A DNA stretch of 17,783 bases from Candidatus Thalassarchaeaceae archaeon (lineage in GTDB: Archaea > Thermoplasmatota > Poseidoniia > Poseidoniales > Thalassarchaeaceae), in assembly GCA_030747675.1 (NCBI GenBank), contig JASLKH010000013.1, positions 1 through 17,783 of the forward strand, read 5' to 3'. Below the pieces are notes generated by a model that was given only the letters and a program-made list of their open reading frames with translations, made no database searches and was not told where the DNA came from. The translations under genes and the position numbers were made by a program. This document shows positions 9,246 to 17,563 of the stretch, one piece after another (within the stretch, counting starts at the first letter, position 1; each line of letters opens with the position of its first letter).

Positions 9246-10124
9246 ATGGAGGCTGCCTTGTTTGCACGTTTGTGGGAGGAAATTGATTTTGATGATCATC
9301 CTCTGAACGGTGGCCATGATTCATCTCCTGAAGGTGAATTAGTTGTATCAGAAGGTGAAGGCTGGATTCGTTTAGAGGATTCAAGATTAAGCGTATCATT
9401 GGGTTGTAAAACAGATGCGACCTCATCACATATGTGGGCCTCGAATAGTGTGAAAGTTAACCAAGGCCCAGGCCGTCTTGGAGTGCATCGTTGGTCATTT
9501 TCACCAAATGAATTGAATCATGAATTATATCATTGGTTGGCAGGGAAGATAGGTGAACCCGGAGTAATAGAGGGGGACTCTGTTGACGTTGAGCGTATTT
9601 TACTCGGTGAATTACGTGTTATTCTTGAACCAATTCTTAGTGATTGGACTTGGCATCTAGAAATAGACAACAAACCTGACAGAATGGGTTGGTATATTCG
9701 GGCACCTAGTAAATGGTGTAGCCTTTTCACAATATTTGTTGGCCTTGATATGAATTCAAAAAATAGCCAAAAGGGATTTTTATTGTTTGAGAGAGCGCCA
9801 CCAGGGGAATTGGATCGACCAGATGAAAAGGAGGCCAACCAATTGGATGGTCTACGTACTGTTGCTTTATGCAATGCATCGAGAGGTGCCCTTTCATTGC
9901 TGGCAGGAGATATGCATTGGGCCTCAACTCCTCGCGCATATCCCTTACCAGATTTGCCTGGTTCAGTTCATCTATGGCCACCTTCAATGGGCCGCTGGCC
10001 GCTTCTACATGCCAAATCTGATGAAGGGGCGAATATTTGTGAATGGGCTTACGAATTAGTTCAAGCATTACTGCCTTCAATTTCAACATTGAATACTAAA
10101 ATCAAAGGACTTAGTTGGCATTGA
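9246..10124 (+). CDS. Hypothetical protein (Trp-rich, soluble)
   Basis: About 292-aa ORF with no recognised motif. An alternative TTG start at 9213 overlaps the upstream stop (TTGA). The 3' end overlaps the convergent kinase gene by 14 nt. Confidence 0.75.
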   Translation: MEAALFARLWEEIDFDDHPLNGGHDSSPEGELVVSEGEGWIRLEDSRLSVSLGCKTDATSSHMWASNSVKVNQGPGRLGVHRWSFSPNELNHELYHWLAGKIGEPGVIEGDSVDVERILLGELRVILEPILSDWTWHLEIDNKPDRMGWYIRAPSKWCSLFTIFVGLDMNSKNSQKGFLLFERAPPGELDRPDEKEANQLDGLRTVALCNASRGALSLLAGDMHWASTPRAYPLPDLPGSVHLWPPSMGRWPLLHAKSDEGANICEWAYELVQALLPSISTLNTKIKGLSWH

Positions 10125-10974
10125 CGACTAATCCTTCGTCATCGAAATCCCATTCGATAATTTCCCAATTCGCATTCTCGCATGCTTCCTTCACAATATC
10201 CTGCCGGCCATGACCTGCTAAGAGGGCAACACACCCACCTCCACCTGCTCCCAACGCTTTCCAACCTGCAACGTCTCCACTAGCACACAAAGGGTCTACA
10301 ATTGAGCGGAAAGGTGCGTGAAGAGCAGGGTCTAGTGCATCAACTCCATTGCATACATCTTGCAAGGCTTCAATGACAAAATTTCTACGGTCCTGATCTA
10401 ATCCTTTAGCCATTTTTCTAGCAGCCAATCGAATGGTCATTAATCCATCAATAACTTCTTGCTCACCATCAGCATATCTTTTCCAAATCCTATCGTGTAA
10501 TTCACCACTCACATGGGGGATTCCACTATTTGCGACAACGAGATGTTTTTGCAACCAAAAACGGGCACTCCGTGGTGGTTCAAATGGAAGCGGTTCAACA
10601 TTGTCGCCAATAAACATCAGATGGTTGAATCCACCATTTTTTGCGGCCCATTGATCCTGACGTCCCCCCGTATTTCCAAGCAGTGCTTCAAATTGATATG
10701 CAAGTTCTTCCGCATTTTCCTGACCCTTGATAGCAGCCATTAATGCGACATTGATTGCACCTGTTGTTCCTAATCCAGATCCTACAGGGGCATCACACGA
10801 ATAGGTGACATTCAATTTTTCATTGCCATCAATTGTCAGTTTTGCCCTAGCGTAGATGTTGATGGCACAATTCACCACTTCACCTCCCACGTCATGTGTG
10901 TACGGTGGAACGTCAGTCCAACCTCCTGCGAGGTCCAATCGAACAGGCGCCCTTGCCTCAATTTCCCTTGCCAT
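10111..10974 (-). CDS. Compact GHMP sugar kinase, L-fucokinase/HddA-like
   Basis: RAPVRLDLAGGWTDVPPY...GGEVVNCAI (GGWTD is fucokinase/Fkp-like), PVGSGLGTTGA ATP loop, GGRQDQ, VHxSG-like HVSGELH and WKALGAGGGG. SD-like GAGGGGT lies just upstream of ATG 10974. Confidence 0.85.
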   Translation of the reverse strand: MAREIEARAPVRLDLAGGWTDVPPYTHDVGGEVVNCAINIYARAKLTIDGNEKLNVTYSCDAPVGSGLGTTGAINVALMAAIKGQENAEELAYQFEALLGNTGGRQDQWAAKNGGFNHLMFIGDNVEPLPFEPPRSARFWLQKHLVVANSGIPHVSGELHDRIWKRYADGEQEVIDGLMTIRLAARKMAKGLDQDRRNFVIEALQDVCNGVDALDPALHAPFRSIVDPLCASGDVAGWKALGAGGGGCVALLAGHGRQDIVKEACENANWEIIEWDFDDEGLVVNAN

Positions 10975-10998
10975 GTTTCGACCCCTCGACAATTAGGT

Positions 10999-13900
10999 TT
11001 AGTTGAATCGCCAAGTTGCTATTGCTTTAGGATTCAATTTTGCAGGCCACCCCGATTTAGAAATACGCGGTTTGGTGGTTGCATTTTCTAACAAATCACA
11101 TCCACGAACATTGAACAGTGGTAGATCAGTCTCTATTCGACCTTCCCACACTTCGCTAGTTGGGTTGTATAGTCTGACGATAGTACCATTACCATCAGCA
11201 GCTGGCTTGACACAGGCGATGATAGGCATTGGACCAGTCCCTACCAATCGAACCGGTTGTAAGCGCTTTCCACCTTTTCCTGGGGTACAGATTTCATCAA
11301 ATTCTCCATCTAATTGCGGTTTTGGAAGAGCATTTTGTACATTGGCATCACAAGCAAATGATTCTGCAACTTGGTGTATTTCAGATTCGACCCAAGTGTC
11401 ATCATAAGCCATTATTGCCCACCGAGTCCACTGGGATCCCTTGCATTGTGCCCCTGGTGCTTCAAACACGGGTCCTGCTCGATTTCTTCTACTAGCAAAC
11501 CCATCCAAACTGAGATGACCAGTAGCGCGGAGCAAAGTGATTGCTAGTGTGGTTCCAGACTCACCAGTCATTGCTTCATATTCATTTGATCCTGGACAGA
11601 ATATGGCGACACCTCCATCCTTTTCTTCTGCGATTAATACATCTGAAAAGTGGTGTGTTGGTACATGTGGTTGCTGCCAATCTGCGTGGTGTGGCCAATT
11701 TGCTGGCCGCTCAAGAATATCAAATGCCCCTCCTGCAAAGACAGTTTTCGTATCGCATCCAGTTGGGATATGCATTCTTAGGCGATGATCTTCACTCGAA
11801 TTATTCACCCATGTTTCAACTTCAATCATACTGTGTCCACTTCGCATTGTAATGTAATGGTCAATTGTATTCCATTCCATTTCTTCACTACGCTTTTGAG
11901 TTCCTCTATCAAAGCGAGCTGGTAATGCCCATGCAACATGTAGTCTCACCGTAGCAGTCCAATCATCCTGATTTTCTATTGTCAAATACACTTGTCGGTT
12001 CGCCTCATCAACATCTGCAATTCTGCAATCAGTAGCCTCAACTCGTTCAGCCATTTTTTCTCCTTTACCTGCTGCTTGAGGTACAGGATGTCCGGCTGCA
12101 GACCAATCATAACTATCGCCAGCATCTTCTGAATCTTCTAAACGACCCGCTCCAATGATGTGCCGACCAGTTGAATGATCTAGTATGTCAAAGCGACCAT
12201 CGGCCCTGAACAAAACGCGAACTCGTCCATTATCCATCCAATCAGTTCGTCCAAACTCTCCACCAAGCCTTACGGGCTCTCCGGGTAAATTGTGTGACCC
12301 TCTGCCAGGTAGAGCATGGGCAACTGAAAGCCCAGGTGGGAGCCGGTGGACATGAATACGTCCCACAATACGGGGAAGTTCAACATTAGCCACACGGTCG
12401 TAATGCACATGTAAATCCCATGATTTTGGTTGGATTGACAACCCTTCCGTGTGGATTAAACAATCTCCTGCTGCAGCAGCCATGACAATTTTTACAGGGA
12501 GACCGTGATCTAACCAACAACGGAATTTTGGAACTGCGATATCAATCATGAGAGTCCCCGACCATGCTTTCGCCAATGGATTGTGGAAGAGCAGCGGGAC
12601 TGCATCACGATCTTCGTTGGATAAATCCATTTGTTCCCTCAATTCAAGGCGCACATCATCTTCTAACATAACGGCAACTTGCTGAGCATGTTTGAACCGA
12701 ACTTCCATGTCATCATGTGTTTCATCAACACTGCAACCACAAATGTCATCATGAGGGTGATTACGAAGAACTTCTCTCCATGCTAAATCCAATCTATCAC
12801 CACGGAACCTTCCACCATTTGCGCAAGAAATTGATGATAATTGTTCGACTCGATCTTTCAGCAATCTCATTGTGTGATCATTTGCACGTTTGAGATATAG
12901 GCGAGCACTGAATACTCCTGATAGAACATTCATTGACCACCCTGAGTGCAATTCACCTTGGTACTTGAATACCTTTGATTTCCCTAACCATTCCCGTAGG
13001 GCTTCAATATATGCCGGGAATGACGAATGTTGGAATTTTATTTTTCCATTAAATCGTTGACTTGCTTTACCAATTAACATTGGCAAAGTTGGCTGGGGAT
13101 GCGTGTGGTCACTCCCTTGACCGAATAGTAGAACTTCAGGCTTCCATCCAATTTCTTCGTGGCGATTTAGCAATCGTTCCATTCTACCCATGGCAGTTTC
13201 GACATCGACATCAAGCGAGTCTTTTCGATCCAATGGCCTTTCTTCAAAGCCCCAAGCCATTAAGCAAGGATAATCTGGAACTTGTTGAACTGCGAGAACT
13301 TTGGTCTTCCCATCACTGGCATACCAGTTGAATACGCCCCCTGCTTCTTGTATCCAAGGTCCTGCTCCACGAGTGTAAATGAATGAATCAAGTCCAGAAC
13401 CCTTGAGGATTGCAGGTAGTTGTGCTACATGACCAAACGGATCTGGAACATAACCCACTTCTGATCGACCACCCCATCTTTCAGCAGTACGATGACCCAT
13501 TAGCAAGTTACGAACTAGCGCTTCTCCTCCGACAATATATTCGTCAGGAAGTACATACCATGGGCCAATATTCAATCGCCCTTTTTTGATTAATTTTTGA
13601 ATCCGTCCAGCATTTTCTGGTCTTACTTCTAGATAATCCTCGAGTAAAACAGTTTGTCCATCTAATTCGTAGGAGGGGTATGCTTTGGCATTATTTTCCA
13701 TGATGTCAAGTAAATCATCAATGAATTCAATCAAGCGATATCTGTATTTTTGGAATGGAAGGTACCAAGCCCTATCCCAGTGTGTATGAGGAACTATGTG
13801 CCCAATCAAGGGCGCATCTTTGAGACGCCCAGTTTTAGCAACTGAGAGTTTTGGATATCGAGATCCATCAGCGACTTCTTTTGGCAGTGGTTCTATTTCA

Positions 13901-14598
13901 GGTAAGTCTTCGATTTCTTCTTCAATTACTTCCCATTTCTCGTCAGTATCTGATTTCACTACTTCTTCAATGATATTTTCACTACTTTCTGTAACTTTGG
14001 AAGTCTCTTCGTTTGCTTCTTGTGCAGCTAATTCTTCTGCATCTACAATATTTTCTTCCTGTCCGGTGATTTTGGCCACTGCATCGTCGAAGAGGGTACT
14101 TTCATCATCCCTTCTAGGGATATCAGTGACCAGTTCTTCTTGGACTGGGTTGGGCGGGCCTCTGACAGGTGGACCCTTTCTTGTCGGAGGCCCTCTGGAA
14201 GGTGGCCCCTTTCTTACTGGGGGCCCTTTAGCAGGTGCTTCAGTAGAAGTTTCAGTAGGTCTTTCAGAAGTGTCTTCTGAAGGTGGTTCTGGTATTTCTT
14301 CATCATCCTCTTCTTCATCTAATATTTCCTCAGTAGTAGAATTTAGGTCAGATGAAAGTCTACTCGGTGGCCCAGAGGGTGGTCTCCCAGATGGCCCAGA
14401 TGGCGGTCCACTCGGTGGCCCAGATGGTGGTCCCCCTGATGGCCCAGATGGCGGGCCACTCGGCGGTCCAGAAGGTGGCCTTTTAGTGGGGGGTCCTCGA
14501 CTAGGAGGCCCACGGCTAGGAGGTCCGCGCTTCGACGGCGCAGTCTCTTTTTCAGAGACATCATCTTCCTCTTCATTCGGTGGTCCAGCGGGTGGCAT
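10999..14598 (-). CDS. GH38 alpha-mannosidase (MngB/mannosylglycerate-hydrolase-like) with ~260-aa Pro-rich, charged disordered N-terminal extension
   Basis: HIVPHTHWDRAWY (Zn ligands), LDGQTVLLEDYL, IGPWYVLPDE, GYVPDPFGH (nucleophile), GSDH and HPHDDICGCSVDETH, followed by GH38 C-terminal beta domains. No signal peptide. Confidence 0.92.
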   Translation of the reverse strand: MPPAGPPNEEEDDVSEKETAPSKRGPPSRGPPSRGPPTKRPPSGPPSGPPSGPSGGPPSGPPSGPPSGPSGRPPSGPPSRLSSDLNSTTEEILDEEEDDEEIPEPPSEDTSERPTETSTEAPAKGPPVRKGPPSRGPPTRKGPPVRGPPNPVQEELVTDIPRRDDESTLFDDAVAKITGQEENIVDAEELAAQEANEETSKVTESSENIIEEVVKSDTDEKWEVIEEEIEDLPEIEPLPKEVADGSRYPKLSVAKTGRLKDAPLIGHIVPHTHWDRAWYLPFQKYRYRLIEFIDDLLDIMENNAKAYPSYELDGQTVLLEDYLEVRPENAGRIQKLIKKGRLNIGPWYVLPDEYIVGGEALVRNLLMGHRTAERWGGRSEVGYVPDPFGHVAQLPAILKGSGLDSFIYTRGAGPWIQEAGGVFNWYASDGKTKVLAVQQVPDYPCLMAWGFEERPLDRKDSLDVDVETAMGRMERLLNRHEEIGWKPEVLLFGQGSDHTHPQPTLPMLIGKASQRFNGKIKFQHSSFPAYIEALREWLGKSKVFKYQGELHSGWSMNVLSGVFSARLYLKRANDHTMRLLKDRVEQLSSISCANGGRFRGDRLDLAWREVLRNHPHDDICGCSVDETHDDMEVRFKHAQQVAVMLEDDVRLELREQMDLSNEDRDAVPLLFHNPLAKAWSGTLMIDIAVPKFRCWLDHGLPVKIVMAAAAGDCLIHTEGLSIQPKSWDLHVHYDRVANVELPRIVGRIHVHRLPPGLSVAHALPGRGSHNLPGEPVRLGGEFGRTDWMDNGRVRVLFRADGRFDILDHSTGRHIIGAGRLEDSEDAGDSYDWSAAGHPVPQAAGKGEKMAERVEATDCRIADVDEANRQVYLTIENQDDWTATVRLHVAWALPARFDRGTQKRSEEMEWNTIDHYITMRSGHSMIEVETWVNNSSEDHRLRMHIPTGCDTKTVFAGGAFDILERPANWPHHADWQQPHVPTHHFSDVLIAEEKDGGVAIFCPGSNEYEAMTGESGTTLAITLLRATGHLSLDGFASRRNRAGPVFEAPGAQCKGSQWTRWAIMAYDDTWVESEIHQVAESFACDANVQNALPKPQLDGEFDEICTPGKGGKRLQPVRLVGTGPMPIIACVKPAADGNGTIVRLYNPTSEVWEGRIETDLPLFNVRGCDLLENATTKPRISKSGWPAKLNPKAIATWRFN
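14149..14229 (-). repeat. Coding repeat cluster (K/R)GPP: KGPPVRKGPPSRGPPTRKGPPVRGPP
   Basis: Five GPP units in the translation of the GH38 N-terminal extension; boundaries approximate. Confidence 0.8.
14359..14529 (-). repeat. Coding tandem repeat: RGPPS x3 followed by a 48-nt (16-aa) unit PPSGPPSGPPSGPSG(G/R) x2.5
   Basis: Units at 14478-14431, 14430-14383 and a partial unit at 14382-14359. They differ mostly at synonymous positions, and the AGT Ser codon is always at codon 7 of the unit. Confidence 0.9.
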
Positions 14599-14651: not shown

Positions 14652-16778
14652 TTATTGCGACCTCCTAAGGAGGTCGTCGAGAACTTGATTGGCCAGATTT
14701 AATTCATCTTCAATTTCATTTTCAAAATTGATTTTCGCTCCAGGATATCGTAACGCTGCTGCTACTCCAATCATGATGTTCGAGAATTCTAAATTATGTT
14801 CCATACAAAGTAAAACAGGTCCCATTAATCTGTCATGCATTCCAAGTTTTCGCATAGGGTCGCGGGCATTTCTCTCAATGGGATCTTGTATTGATTGGTC
14901 TTGATATTTGAGGAGGGCATTGCGACACCATTCTCTTTGCTCAGTCTCATCAAAATCAAATGCACTAACTAGTGCTGCCGATGATTCTGCACCAGCAGCA
15001 AGCGCAACCTTTGCAATATCGGAATCATTAGCAGCATCTGCAAGCCAGATATAACCACGAAGATATCCAAGGTAACAAACAACTGCATTAACACAATTGT
15101 AAGTGAATAACTTTCTTGTCAACTCACGTTCAAAGTTTGGAACTGGAACTAATCCCTTAACCTGTGGATTTGTCAATAGTGCGTCTCCGTCTAGTGGCAA
15201 TGTCCAATGGTCTTGAATTTGCACAGTCATCTTGGCTTGGCCGGAGGACGGTTCAATGCAAGAACGCAAGACTTGTGCTTGTACAATTCCAAGATTTTCA
15301 TTAATTAATTCAATTTGCCTTTCATCAGAATTTGAGATTAGATAATTACGAACTGCGGCTGCAGGTCTTGGATGATTTTCCGCCAATATGAGGTCAATTT
15401 TGCCCCTTTGAAGTCTTTTAAAGAGAATTTCTTTTATTTCTTCACACCATGGTAATAATTGGTTCGCGCCCATCGAAGTCATCAACAAATCCGCTGAATT
15501 AAGTGTGTCCATCAAAGACTTTTTTTCGCTCATATGGATGACATTTTTGACTACTATTGTTTCATTTTTTTTCGTAGATAAATTGTGCACATCCCACATC
15601 TTTGTTTCGCGTAAAGATTCAACTGTTGGAATATGTGAATCAACTAGGATGATTTCCCAACCTGAATGAGTTAGCAATTGACTGAGAAAACCTCTGCCAA
15701 CTTTTCCTGCCCCAAAAATCACTGCACACAGTTTTCTTTGAGCAAGTTTTGCGACACCAAGTACACTTACTTCTTGTCCTGCAACAAAGGATGCATTTCT
15801 AGACTGCACTAATTGTGGAATCATTGCTAAACCACCTCCTATCAGCATTTCTTGTGATGGGAAAAAATTGCGTATTTCTTCAATTGGACGATTAATTTCT
15901 TGCAATATTTTCCAAGCCCCCCCTTTCTTGCCATTTGCAGATTCTAATTTCAATTGTTCAATGAACTTTAGAGCAGAATCCCGGCTTGGTTTTTCACCTG
16001 AAATCTGAGACAGAGTCAACCCACCTGAGGATGTCGCGTTGTAACAAAGTGCAGGTAGGCAACCCAAAGGGGGCAACCAACTCATTTGGTCTTGGGGTTT
16101 CCCTCCAACCATGCCAACGTGTTCACTTGTATTTGCGAGATTGAATAAATCCCCCACTTTCGCATCTAAACCCAATACACCCGCAGTCAGGTCATCACAT
16201 CCACAGATGACTTCAGCACCTTCAGTAATTCCAGACAATACCGCTCCATTTTTGGTGACCACCCCGATTACACTCTGCGGTAGTTGGAAATGTCCTTTTC
16301 CAGAAAACCCTCTCATTGAACGTTTGTCTCTTGCAATAATTCCTGTAAGTTCCCAATTGTACAAATCTTTGAGCTGAATTGCAATCCCGTCTTTGAGTGG
16401 TCCATTCTCCATTTCCCATTGTGCTAGCCTCGCAGGTACCCAAGCACGGGTATCTGGCAATTGTTGTTCACCTTCCGTTGGTCGTTGGCATTCTTCAGGT
16501 AGTGGTTCATGCCATGATATGATTCTTCCACAAAGTCTCCTGTCTTTGATAACAACAGCTGAAGGTCCATGGGTTGTGATCCCAACTCTTGTGATTTTTT
16601 GCTTCTTGTTCCCCAACCAATCTCTTAGAGGATTCCATAACCCTTCAGAAGTAGGCCAAACGCCCATTTCCCATGTTGAATCTGATTTGAGAAGGAGTAC
16701 TTTCGTTGCGCTTGTACCGACATCGAGACCCAGTGTCAGTCGCTCAGGCATGGAGTCTCCGAGACACAGCCGGTTCAT
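14652..16778 (-). CDS. Fusion: compact FGGY-family carbohydrate kinase + mannitol-1-phosphate 5-dehydrogenase (MtlD)-family domain
   Basis: N-terminal half: LGLDVGTSATK, LTG...D, GCDDLTAGVLG, NTSE, IGGG and EVSVLGVAKLA (FGGY). C-terminal half from about 15730: AVIFGAGKVGRGF, TSMGAN, LAEN, RKLFTYN and IERNARDPMRKLGMHDRLMGP (MtlD). ATG 16778 overlaps the upstream stop (ATGA); ATG 16751 with an upstream GGAG is an alternative. Confidence 0.88.
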   Translation of the reverse strand: MNRLCLGDSMPERLTLGLDVGTSATKVLLLKSDSTWEMGVWPTSEGLWNPLRDWLGNKKQKITRVGITTHGPSAVVIKDRRLCGRIISWHEPLPEECQRPTEGEQQLPDTRAWVPARLAQWEMENGPLKDGIAIQLKDLYNWELTGIIARDKRSMRGFSGKGHFQLPQSVIGVVTKNGAVLSGITEGAEVICGCDDLTAGVLGLDAKVGDLFNLANTSEHVGMVGGKPQDQMSWLPPLGCLPALCYNATSSGGLTLSQISGEKPSRDSALKFIEQLKLESANGKKGGAWKILQEINRPIEEIRNFFPSQEMLIGGGLAMIPQLVQSRNASFVAGQEVSVLGVAKLAQRKLCAVIFGAGKVGRGFLSQLLTHSGWEIILVDSHIPTVESLRETKMWDVHNLSTKKNETIVVKNVIHMSEKKSLMDTLNSADLLMTSMGANQLLPWCEEIKEILFKRLQRGKIDLILAENHPRPAAAVRNYLISNSDERQIELINENLGIVQAQVLRSCIEPSSGQAKMTVQIQDHWTLPLDGDALLTNPQVKGLVPVPNFERELTRKLFTYNCVNAVVCYLGYLRGYIWLADAANDSDIAKVALAAGAESSAALVSAFDFDETEQREWCRNALLKYQDQSIQDPIERNARDPMRKLGMHDRLMGPVLLCMEHNLEFSNIMIGVAAALRYPGAKINFENEIEDELNLANQVLDDLLRRSQ
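14658..14676. repeat. Perfect palindrome CGACCTCCT-A-AGGAGGTCG just before the stop codon of the kinase-MtlD gene
   Basis: 9-bp arms at 14658-14666 and 14668-14676; the stop codon is at 14652-14654. Confidence 0.5.
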
Positions 16779-17563
16779 TGCAAGTTCTCTGCACTGTCTG
16801 GCCAAGAAATCGGTGACCAATCGAGAATTGATAGACCCGGTTCGAGATCTAAGAACCGATCAGGTGAATCCGATTGTGCGGCAGTAAGTAGATATCCGTC
16901 AATTGGATTTTCAACCGCAGCTTGGAAAAATCTGCGCACATCTTCGGCCAAGAATGCGGTGGCCTGCAATCGTCCACCACGTGTCCAGTGCTCCGTTTCA
17001 TCAGGGATCACAGTTCCAATCCGAACAGCGATAGTTTCCATGCCATGGATTCTAGCGTGCATTTCAGCCATCACTTCCGCATAGATCTTTGAAGCGCCGT
17101 ATGTTGATGTTGGCGACACTCCATCTTCAACACGAATCAGTCGACCATGCATCGGTCCGCCTTCGGCAAATAGAGGTTCAAGCCCCACTTGGGCCAGGCC
17201 GCTTGAGGCTACGATTACACGGCTGACATGAGATGCTTTTGTGCATCGGAAAATCGCGGTTGTCGGCTCGATATTGTTGCGCATCATCGAGACATCATCA
17301 TTTGACGGATTCGCATCTGCAGCCAAATGGATTAGGCAATCTGAACCTTCGAGAACCGCACACAACTCCTCGTCTGAAATCGTTGTCAAATCCATTTCAA
17401 TGGATACACGATTTCGCGCATTTTCATCCTCTGTGTTTCTGCCGGAAACCAACCAATCGTTCAATGGTCGATCAATTCCGATCACTTCGTGTCCAAGCGA
17501 TGACAAATGGTCGTGGACGATGCCTCCGATGAGGCCCGCAGCTCCAGTAATCACGACCCGCAT
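16775..17563 (-). CDS. Extended SDR / NAD-dependent epimerase-dehydratase family, uronate-dehydrogenase-like
   Basis: ITGAAGLIG (GxxGxxG), LIHLAA, NN, IVASS, YGASK (YxxxK) and VRIG. The layout after YxxxK (ETIAVRIGT...RLQATAF...D) resembles uronate dehydrogenases. SD-like GGAG upstream. Family is secure, substrate is tentative. Confidence 0.82.
   Translation of the reverse strand: MRVVITGAAGLIGGIVHDHLSSLGHEVIGIDRPLNDWLVSGRNTEDENARNRVSIEMDLTTISDEELCAVLEGSDCLIHLAADANPSNDDVSMMRNNIEPTTAIFRCTKASHVSRVIVASSGLAQVGLEPLFAEGGPMHGRLIRVEDGVSPTSTYGASKIYAEVMAEMHARIHGMETIAVRIGTVIPDETEHWTRGGRLQATAFLAEDVRRFFQAAVENPIDGYLLTAAQSDSPDRFLDLEPGLSILDWSPISWPDSAENLQ

Follow-up and report, generated by a model that had tools for sequence, protein, structure and literature searches.

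Phosphorylation of a polyol followed by oxidation of the polyol phosphate is an established route, as in the GlpK/GlpD and EryA/EryB systems, and the kinases GlpK, EryA and DalK all belong to the FGGY family. GlpD and EryB are FAD-dependent members of other dehydrogenase families, the dehydrogenases of the other routes (DalD/DalK and that of Haloarcula hispanica) act on unphosphorylated polyols, and none of these enzymes is fused to a kinase. H. hispanica oxidises mannitol to fructose first and phosphorylates the fructose afterwards (PMC11519228). The sole documented fusion of MtlD is the HAD-MtlD protein of Acinetobacter (PMC9168451). In A. baumannii MtlD (7OCN-7OCU) a HAD phosphatase carrying a helix-loop-helix insert is joined to a mannitol-1-phosphate dehydrogenase (M1PDH) domain, flux is towards mannitol synthesis, and the fusion has been argued to prevent the accumulation of free mannitol-1-phosphate (PMC9168451). 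Our literature search found neither a molecularly defined mannitol kinase nor a characterised FGGY-MtlD enzyme. Here we analyse a stretch of 17,783 nucleotides (the window; contig JASLKH010000013.1, assembly GCA_030747675.1) from a Candidatus Thalassarchaeaceae archaeon of the order Poseidoniales, in which a single gene encodes an FGGY-type kinase fused to an MtlD-like dehydrogenase.

Like A. baumannii MtlD, the protein of the window places a phosphoryl-transfer domain N-terminal to an M1PDH-type domain in one chain, and like the GlpK/GlpD, EryA/EryB, DalD/DalK and H. hispanica systems it would combine one phosphorylation of a polyol with one oxidation. It differs from the A. baumannii enzyme in having an FGGY kinase, in lacking the helix-loop-helix insert and in its catabolic gene context. 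We tentatively favour a bifunctional enzyme in which the kinase acts first and a polyol-phosphate dehydrogenase second, a reading to which sequence and structural model together give a little less than an even chance. The gene and its principal features, all on the minus strand, are:

14652 to 16778, minus strand: whole fused gene, 708 amino acids plus stop, one uninterrupted open frame from the ATG at 16778
15741 to 16778, minus strand: kinase half, residues 1-346, a minimal FGGY (ASKHA) fold, assigned from structure, profile and split orthologues
16701 to 16730, minus strand: phosphate-1 motif GLDVGTSATK (Asp19, Lys26), from translation, invariance and alignment to XylB
16179 to 16208, minus strand: ICGCDDLTAG, with Asp196 as predicted catalytic base, from translation, invariance and alignment to XylB
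16119 to 16130, minus strand: TSEH, the family-specific phosphate-2 motif, GTSG in XylB, from translation
15831 to 15839, minus strand: GGG (314-316), the adenosine-motif glycines of domain II, invariant, from translation
15729 to 15740, minus strand: four-residue linker QRKL (347-350), from translation, lying in the model between helix 337-346 and strand 351-355
14655 to 15728, minus strand: dehydrogenase half, residues 351-708, an MtlD-like long-chain polyol dehydrogenase by Pfam and 3H2Z
15255 to 15281, minus strand: QAQVLRSCI, with Leu504 for the Asp of the VDRI segment, by alignment to 3H2Z
15087 to 15113, minus strand: KLFTYNCVN, with predicted catalytic Lys556 and Asn561 and with Asn564 replacing the His of polyol-specific long-chain dehydrogenases/reductases (PSLDRs), by alignment to 3H2Z, invariant
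14829 to 14885, minus strand: DPIERNARDPMRKLGMHDR, DxxxR plus RxxxRKxxxxDR, the M1PDH phosphate-binding motif, from translation and the published motif (PMC9168451)

The fusion claimed in the original prediction is real. The junction reads ...VLGVAKLA-QRKL-CAVIFGAGKVGRGF, as had been stated, and an AlphaFold2 model built on 61 homologues, in which both halves are confident (pLDDT 92, pTM 0.84), ends the last kinase helix at residue 346 (337-346) and begins the first Rossmann strand at 351 (351-355). A frameshift or stop at the junction was looked for and none was found. The ATG at 16778 overlaps the stop codon of the upstream gene as ATGA, and an alternative ATG at 16751, nine codons further in, would give 699 residues, which is the length of the recorded gene model P0002. 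A word-indexed search recovered both halves in one protein in at least 120 clusters at 90% identity, and those clusters that are named come from Thermoplasmatota or Thalassarchaeaceae. Species-representative genomes hold 66 fusion loci, and apart from a few seemingly mis-binned names these belong to Poseidoniales (Marine Group II, MGII, a and b); four genomes of the same genus have open frames of 673-691 residues at the dehydrogenase match. An assembly artefact can be ruled out because the fusion is carried by more than 100 independent Poseidoniales clusters. Contigs deposited as Poribacteria, Yoonia and Alphaproteobacteria (loci L015, L017, L055 and L067) also carry the archaeal fusion, 52-60% identical to that of the window in L015, L017 and L067 and 37% in L055, and are probably mis-binned or mis-named contigs from metagenome-assembled genomes.

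The two activities also occur as separate genes in Poseidoniales. In these split forms a kinase gene of 466-494 codons is followed by an adjacent or overlapping dehydrogenase gene of about 400-416 codons, within the same cluster of an extended SDR, a GH38 alpha-mannosidase and a GHMP kinase that surrounds the fusion. The split modules are:

L057, 7995-10679: split module
L066, 7995-10645: split module
L065, 7977-10534: split module
L062, 6073-7554: split module (kinase)
L063, 3707-6216: split module, kinase stop and dehydrogenase start overlapping as TGATG
L073, 10001-12683: split module, genes overlapping by 8 nucleotides
L074, 10001-12684: split module

With the TGATG overlap of L063 and the 8-nucleotide overlap of L073, a one-base change could therefore fuse or split the genes. 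The fused forms are of two sizes: long fusions of 748-807 residues with a kinase half of about 390-430, and short fusions, including that of the window, of 640-740 residues with a kinase half of 288-368. In a quick maximum-likelihood tree of the dehydrogenase halves, bacterial and archaeal sequences are separated with support of 100/100, and split and fused archaeal forms are interleaved in a way that implies at least four changes; the tree is midpoint-rooted and such fusion and fission counts are provisional. With the same rooting, the split forms L073 and L074 branch first, beside the bacterial clade. The kinase and dehydrogenase appear to be functionally paired by the Rosetta-stone argument, because the genes are adjacent or overlapping in Poseidoniales and fused at full length in bacteria (see below). 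One pair of loci shows a mismatch between the halves: the dehydrogenases of L063 and P0063 are 73% identical and the kinases, 466 residues in the split form and 349 in the fused form, only 30%, which reflects either very fast remodelling of the kinase after fusion or separate histories of the halves through recombination.

The N-terminal half is best read as an FGGY kinase by fold, profile and split orthologues, as had been predicted, although this is not obvious from hidden Markov models alone. Direct recognition by Pfam and NCBIfam failed (E 0.013 and 0.032): FGGY_N reached 15.6 bits at the phosphate-1 motif against a cut-off of 28.8, FGGY_C gave no match, and a faint XylB match fell on the segment of the catalytic Asp. 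The unfused orthologues L057 and L066, however, pass the FGGY_N cut-off with 32.3 and 31.5 bits, and distant fused members carry precomputed PF00370/PF02782 matches. In the model, residues 11-349 superpose on glycerol kinases, LsrK, XylB and rhamnulokinase over about 331 residues (Z 29-31.6, root-mean-square deviation (rmsd) about 3.0 A), and Foldseek matches the half to FGGY kinases at E of about 1e-12. The family kinase profile (alignment A2) can be matched along its entire length to E. coli xylulokinase 2ITM (E 9e-17) and finds 6115 matches at E<=1e-3 among 1.8 billion representative proteins. Of the outgroup proteins nearest to the profile, the ten that were scanned are ordinary XylB-like FGGY kinases with lengths of about 485-560 residues, plus one FGGY-MtlD fusion of 896 residues. 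Assigning the kinase to a named FGGY subfamily was tried and abandoned: none of the nearest outgroup proteins reaches the XylB equivalog cut-off, gluconokinase follows closely for some of them, and no specificity can be read from the scores.

The defining motifs of the FGGY family (phosphate-1 DxGT(S/T)xxK, the catalytic Asp in G-x-x-D and GGG) are all present. Across 61 sequences, G314-316 are invariant, and so are D19, G21 and K26, with Asp19 and Lys26 aligning to Asp6 and Lys13 of XylB, as are G193 and D196, with Asp196 aligning to Asp233 in the GGGDNAAG segment of XylB, a residue which we take to be the catalytic base. The phosphate-2 region, where the window reads NTSEH, is specific to the family: E219 and H220 are invariant in the archaeal proteins, TSEH is common to the bacterial fusions, and the variants are TSDH in two bacterial rows and TTEH/SSEH in two split forms. 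Glu219 and His220 are thus good candidates for substrate contacts.

The kinase half shares its fold, phosphate-1 Asp, catalytic Asp and GGG with FGGY kinases such as XylB (2ITM), the glycerol kinases, LsrK and 5HU2/5HV7, but it has about 340 residues instead of 480-500, reads TSEH for GTSG, is only about 14-16% identical to them and is without the C-terminal helices, the FGGY_C signature segment and several loops. Part of this reduction is common to the archaeal family, its split forms included, which ends at about residue 434 of the 484 of XylB with the C-terminal helices gone, so that the full-length architecture of 480-500 residues is absent; the bacterial relatives keep it. The window form has in addition lost an N-terminal hairpin insert, two loops of domain I and most of FGGY_C around F-D-x-x-x-x-G-x-R-G, and the GxRG segment that it lacks is kept in the long and split forms. 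This reduction, together with the failure of FGGY_N and FGGY_C and the fast divergence towards the short forms (39% against 54% identity for the two halves, and 30% against 73% between L063 and P0063), would be expected if the N-terminal half were no longer a kinase and had become a structural, regulatory or ligand-sensing domain, with a phosphorylated or carboxylated substrate such as fructuronate supplied from elsewhere. We regard this as improbable. The catalytic Asp pair, TSEH and GGG are invariant, nearly the entire half superposes on active FGGY kinases, and the short FGGY sugar kinases of Synechococcus elongatus, about 420 residues long (5HU2, and 5HV7 with bound D-ribulose), are among the best matches by target-normalised TM-score; short FGGY kinases are active. 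Moreover, within the short group the N-terminal half is conserved as well as the C-terminal half: mean pairwise identity among 48 short fusions is 64% for the former and 61% for the latter, whereas between short and long forms it is 39% and 54%. This pattern fits a burst of remodelling followed by constraint, and a short kinase half that is not decaying.

The C-terminal half appears to be an M1PDH-like enzyme built for a phosphorylated substrate, without being a demonstrable MtlD equivalog. Pfam Mannitol_dh matches residues 352-505 (E 5e-20, 72.8 bits) and Mannitol_dh_C residues 554-689 (E 5e-21, 75.6 bits), both above cut-off, and the MtlD of Shigella (PDB 3H2Z) is matched at E 8e-35. In the model, residues 350-704 superpose on 3H2Z over 350 residues (Z 35.2, rmsd 3.5 A). 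The Acinetobacter M1PDH/phosphatase model NF046057 aligns only to residues 560-691, with 48.5 bits against a cut-off of 800, and the N-terminal half is FGGY, not HAD. Residues were mapped through alignments to 5JNM and 3H2Z. N468, K556 and N561, invariant in the 61 sequences, align with the triad N119, K200 and N205 of Staphylococcus aureus M1PDH (SaM1PDH), and R636, R639, R643, K644 and R650 align with R280, R283, R287, K288 and R294 of the same enzyme; the triad is catalytic in SaM1PDH and the latter residues are its substrate and phosphate ligands, with mutational support (PMC6623548). The segment DPIERNARDPMRKLGMHDR matches DxxxR plus RxxxRKxxxx(E/D)R perfectly (D632-x3-R636 and R639-x3-R643-K644-x4-D649-R650), and D632, R636, R639, R643, K644 and R650 are on the invariant list, on which D649 does not appear. 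The Arg-rich motif holds the phosphate of fructose-6-phosphate or mannitol-1-phosphate and is the hallmark by which M1PDHs prefer mannitol-1-phosphate to mannitol (PMC9168451). The original prediction was therefore right that the MtlD half keeps the catalytic Lys and Asn and the Arg-rich phosphate segment, and the contrast that it drew between RKLFTYNCVN and RKLFTLNTGH is confirmed in the alignment to Shigella MtlD.

These features bear on the order of the two reactions. If the dehydrogenase acted first, converting mannitol to fructose or arabitol to xylulose, a XylB-like half could then phosphorylate the ketose, as in the D-arabitol dalD/dalK operon. The nearest characterised relatives of the kinase are indeed xylulokinases, dalDK/atlDK is the paradigm for a Mannitol_dh-family dehydrogenase paired with an FGGY kinase, and the sole archaeal polyol pathway described oxidises before it phosphorylates (PMC11519228). 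The dehydrogenase half is, however, of the short MtlD type of about 380 residues and not of the long type of mannitol 2-dehydrogenase (M2DH) and DalD (Z 35.2 with 3H2Z against 28.1 with 4IM7), and it conserves the phosphate-binding RxxxRKxxxxDR, which would have no role on a neutral polyol. We therefore consider an oxidation-first order unlikely, and prefer phosphorylation followed by oxidation of the phosphorylated product.

The kinase profile search also revealed a bacterial sister family. Its first member, P0129 (896 residues), has a XylB-like kinase scoring 289 bits and an MtlD-like half scoring 243 bits, and about 17 fused clusters of 749-913 residues occur in bacterial metagenomes, where the JGI name of the family is 'sugar (pentulose or hexulose) kinase/mannitol-1-phosphate/altronate dehydrogenase'. 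The hosts are probably Acidobacteriota, judging from the names of the closest stand-alone kinases and from gene context. The order of domains is that of the window fusion, and the downstream gene is likewise a glycoside hydrolase, but the kinase is canonical and full-length with a C-terminal tail of about 65 residues before the dehydrogenase, the neighbours are GH2 or DUF5054 and not GH38, and the proteins form a separate clade (100/100). Four motifs are common to the archaeal and bacterial fusions: the TSEH type, (I/V)LRS(C/T)IEPT, RKLFTYNxIN and DPIERNxRDPxRKLxxxDR. Since variant motifs are shared in both halves, the halves look orthologous and the module appears to be common to two domains of life. 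The original prediction knew of MtlD fused to a HAD phosphatase and not to a kinase. The kinase-MtlD architecture is not without precedent: a bacterial FGGY-Mannitol_dh sister family exists, as do the unfused two-gene forms. The glycoside hydrolase gene overlaps the end of the fusion in two of the three bacterial loci examined:

L075, 10001-14751: bacterial fusion, DUF5054 gene downstream and overlapping its end
L076, 10001-15120: bacterial fusion, GH2 gene downstream and overlapping its end
L077, 10001-13370: bacterial fusion, GH2 gene downstream after a gap of 13 nucleotides

The DUF5054 protein of L075 has faint collinear matches to the GH38N and GH38C Pfam models (E 0.03-0.075); BLASTP found no similarity between DUF5054 and GH38 and no PDB relative was found, so these matches are a hint of kinship. 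Upstream in the same locus, a protein of 711 residues has a faint match to MGH1-like mannosylglycerate hydrolases.

In the window the fusion lies within a minus-strand run of four genes (SDR, fusion, GH38 and GHMP kinase):

16775 to 17563, minus strand: extended SDR, 262 amino acids, uronate-dehydrogenase/Azf-like, upstream of the fusion, its stop overlapping the fusion start (ATGA)
10999 to 14598, minus strand: GH38 alpha-mannosidase, 1199 amino acids, MngB-like, 53 nucleotides downstream of the fusion
10111 to 10992, minus strand: GHMP sugar kinase, 293 amino acids, final gene in the run, conserved in related loci

The same order of SDR, kinase plus dehydrogenase, GH38 and GHMP kinase is found again where the fusion shows no more than 35-45% identity, and also around the split forms, with the SDR directly or nearly directly upstream of the module. 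M28 peptidase and metallo-beta-lactamase (MBL) genes are often near the related loci. Genes on the plus strand of the window encode an MBL lactonase-type protein, a glucuronokinase-like GHMP kinase and two proteins without a family. The catalytic domain of the GH38 protein begins at about residue 267, after a long N-terminal extension, and homologues elsewhere have 842-1327 residues. Between 3062 and 5704 on the minus strand, a single open reading frame of 880 residues combines an M28 peptidase (105-263) with an MFS transporter (465-830), which are separate genes in related loci.

The link to GH38 is strict. Mannitol_dh occurs in 13 of 81 sampled Poseidoniales genomes (6 of 19 genera), and a strong GH38 match is present in exactly those 13, in most of them at a distance of about 2 kb on the same contig; a divergent GH38 alone is present in one further genome. 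The 81 genomes are mutually related, and the co-occurrence is accordingly a pattern and not a statistical test. The genome of the window (1.68 Mb, 78% complete) yielded no second FGGY kinase or Mannitol_dh gene.

The neighbourhood also bears on a sugar-acid route, in which mannose or a uronate would be oxidised by the SDR, yielding first the lactone and then the acid, after which the FGGY half would phosphorylate the aldonate and the MtlD-like half would oxidise the 6-phospho-aldonate beside the carboxylate, for example 6-phospho-mannonate to 2-keto-6-phospho-gluconate. The SDR is translationally coupled to the fusion and uronate-dehydrogenase/Azf-like over its full length, matching the uronate dehydrogenases 3RFT and 3AY3 (E of about 1e-7) and, as its best NCBIfam model, haloarchaeal Azf glucose-6-phosphate dehydrogenase. 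An MBL lactonase-type gene lies in the cluster, the FGGY family includes gluconokinases, which score close to XylB among the nearest relatives of the kinase, and Leu504 in place of the head-group Asp would avoid a charge clash with a carboxylate. In L001, L073 and L074 a trio of PfkB, 2-keto-3-deoxy-6-phosphogluconate (KDPG) aldolase and ManD-like genes stands near, upstream of the SDR-kinase-dehydrogenase-GH38 run, and in the window's genome a ManD-like (MR_MLE) gene lies beside a KDPG aldolase gene on another contig (G000:C79:3229-4952). These genes suggest a parallel oxidative branch for mannose or uronate; yet ManD, 2-keto-3-deoxygluconate (KDG) kinase and KDPG aldolase would already make a complete mannonate route without the fusion enzyme. 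No downstream enzyme for a 2-keto-6-phospho-aldonate was seen, the bacterial loci have no adjacent SDR, and we know of no PSLDR that oxidises a 6-phospho-aldonate. On balance a sugar-acid substrate seems to us unlikely.

Under the kinase-then-dehydrogenase reading, the FGGY half would transfer phosphate from ATP to a terminal hydroxyl group on a sugar alcohol, and the Arg cluster of the MtlD-like half would bind the phosphorylated product, whose penultimate carbon at the opposite end would be oxidised with NAD+ to give a ketose phosphate. In the simplest instance mannitol would be converted to mannitol-1-phosphate and then to fructose-6-phosphate. Mannitol is abundant in marine algae and is the foremost candidate, holding about two thirds of the weight that we give to this reading; otherwise the substrate may be a close hexitol or a related open-chain compound from the breakdown of alpha-mannosides. 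Fusion of the halves would stop the build-up of a potentially toxic polyol phosphate. We infer from these features which reaction comes first, in which direction the two run and what the substrate is. The original proposal that the kinase makes the substrate of the dehydrogenase thus stands as the best-fitting logic, with the kept catalytic and phosphate-binding residues in its favour, but mannitol is only the leading guess, because of the strict link to the GH38 cluster and the change of the Asp contact to Leu504. The originally suggested role as a one-protein stand-in for the mannitol phosphotransferase system, put forward without weighing the GH38 cluster, is likewise no more than a possibility.

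One form of the proposal would begin from mannose. Mannose released by a cytoplasmic GH38 would be reduced to mannitol by the SDR, phosphorylated by the FGGY half acting as a true mannitol kinase, and oxidised to fructose-6-phosphate, a redox-neutral route independent of phosphomannose isomerase (PMI) that costs one ATP. Such a new route is conceivable, though we think it rather unlikely. Type I PMI was not found in the 81 Poseidoniales genomes, 53 of them of high quality, but this absence was not upheld as support for the mannose route, since small cupins of about 125 residues with borderline matches to PF01050, the type II PMI domain, occur in 53 of the 81 and leave a cupin-type PMI possible.

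The reverse direction has also been considered, in which fructose-6-phosphate would be reduced to mannitol-1-phosphate for mannitol as an osmolyte and the FGGY-like half would dephosphorylate it or serve a regulatory role, as in the Acinetobacter HAD-MtlD. Rinke et al. and a later MGII paper place mtlD in mannitol metabolism, including synthesis and osmolyte roles, and the order of accessory domain and dehydrogenase mirrors that of the A. baumannii enzyme (AbMtlD). The protein, however, has no phosphatase domain, we have no documented example of an ASKHA kinase working as a phosphatase, and the gene sits in a catabolic cluster of glycosidase, kinase and transporter genes and co-occurs with GH38. 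Biosynthesis is in our view very improbable, and the catabolic kinase-then-dehydrogenase reading is the one retained here.

Several observations nevertheless weigh against that reading, above all with mannitol as substrate. The window kinase is about 130 residues shorter than the split forms, the segment that it has lost includes the FGGY_C signature F-x-P-x-L-x-G-x-R-x-P, and its closest relatives are xylulokinase-like, that is, ketose kinases. In the dehydrogenase half, all nine NCBIfam MtlD equivalogs fall under their cut-offs (269-719), the best being NF002653 with 184.3 bits against 404. The His of the consensus KxxxxNxxH, which binds the hydroxyl adjoining the phosphate-bearing carbon (PMC9168451), is absent: Asn564 is invariant in the archaeal family and occurs in the bacterial fusions as well, where the KLFTYNCVN-type motif is found in seven of nine by pattern and in every row of alignment A4. 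The VDRI-segment Asp, a ligand of the terminal CH2OH group (Asp230 in P. fluorescens M2DH; PMC9168451), is replaced by Leu504, an invariant change of the pocket relative to characterised M1PDHs; L504, R505, S506, C507 and I508 are all invariant in the archaeal family, and the bacterial fusions keep the Leu in (I/V)LRS(T/C)IEPT. The Asp is not an absolute feature, as AbMtlD has Asn at this position (PMC9168451). Finally, the association with GH38, and in bacteria with GH2 or DUF5054, makes a substrate derived from glycosides, which may be mannose or a sugar acid, more plausible than free mannitol.

The dehydrogenase half thus shares with known MtlD and M1PDH enzymes the full-length fold (Z 35.2 and 33.3), the Asn/Lys/Asn triad, DxxxR and the Arg-rich motif, but it is only 22-26% identical to them, has KxxxxNxxN for KxxxxNxxH and Leu for the VDRI Asp, and has a kinase fused or coupled to it where those enzymes are fed by the phosphotransferase system (PTS). 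The predicted His-to-Asn change is real and invariant throughout the family, and it fits the idea of a substrate other than, or besides, mannitol-1-phosphate. Because this change and Asp to Leu504 are both invariant and the MtlD models score under cut-off, the substrate is possibly not mannitol-1-phosphate. Asn564 and Leu504, taken with GH38, leave as possible alternatives another hexitol, mannitol derived from mannose if the SDR is a mannose reductase, or a 6-phospho-aldonate.

Published surveys of MGII, including that of Rinke et al., count the gene simply as mtlD under mannitol metabolism, and our literature search turned up no biochemical study that links MGII or Poseidoniales to mannitol or alpha-mannosidase. 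What is new here is the split forms, the bacterial sister family, the variant motifs common to both groups, the strict co-occurrence with GH38 and the conservation of the short kinase half. Folds and conserved residues are retained, the kinase and dehydrogenase are always paired, whether fused, overlapping or adjacent, and the module is linked to GH38. Judged by its sequences, this is a widespread uncharacterised module whose domains come from well-known superfamilies and which possibly has a new pathway role; the module defined by Asn564, Leu504 and TSEH, shared by Poseidoniales and soil bacteria, may belong to a new catabolic pathway for a glycoside-derived compound.

The series from split to long fused to short fused forms neatly illustrates how two domains can fuse and how an FGGY kinase can then be pared down, here to about 300-340 residues. 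MGII archaea count among the commonest heterotrophs in surface seawater, yet they are uncultured and their carbon sources are inferred from genes alone. The 'mtlD' of MGII surveys proves to be one half of a module of kinase and dehydrogenase, whose active site is altered and which is tied to an alpha-mannosidase cluster. Should mannitol prove to be the substrate, the module would provide the first route through a mannitol kinase to be defined at the molecular level, and Archaea would have a second known polyol pathway; with another substrate, it would represent an unrecognised step in the breakdown of mannose-containing algal glycans.

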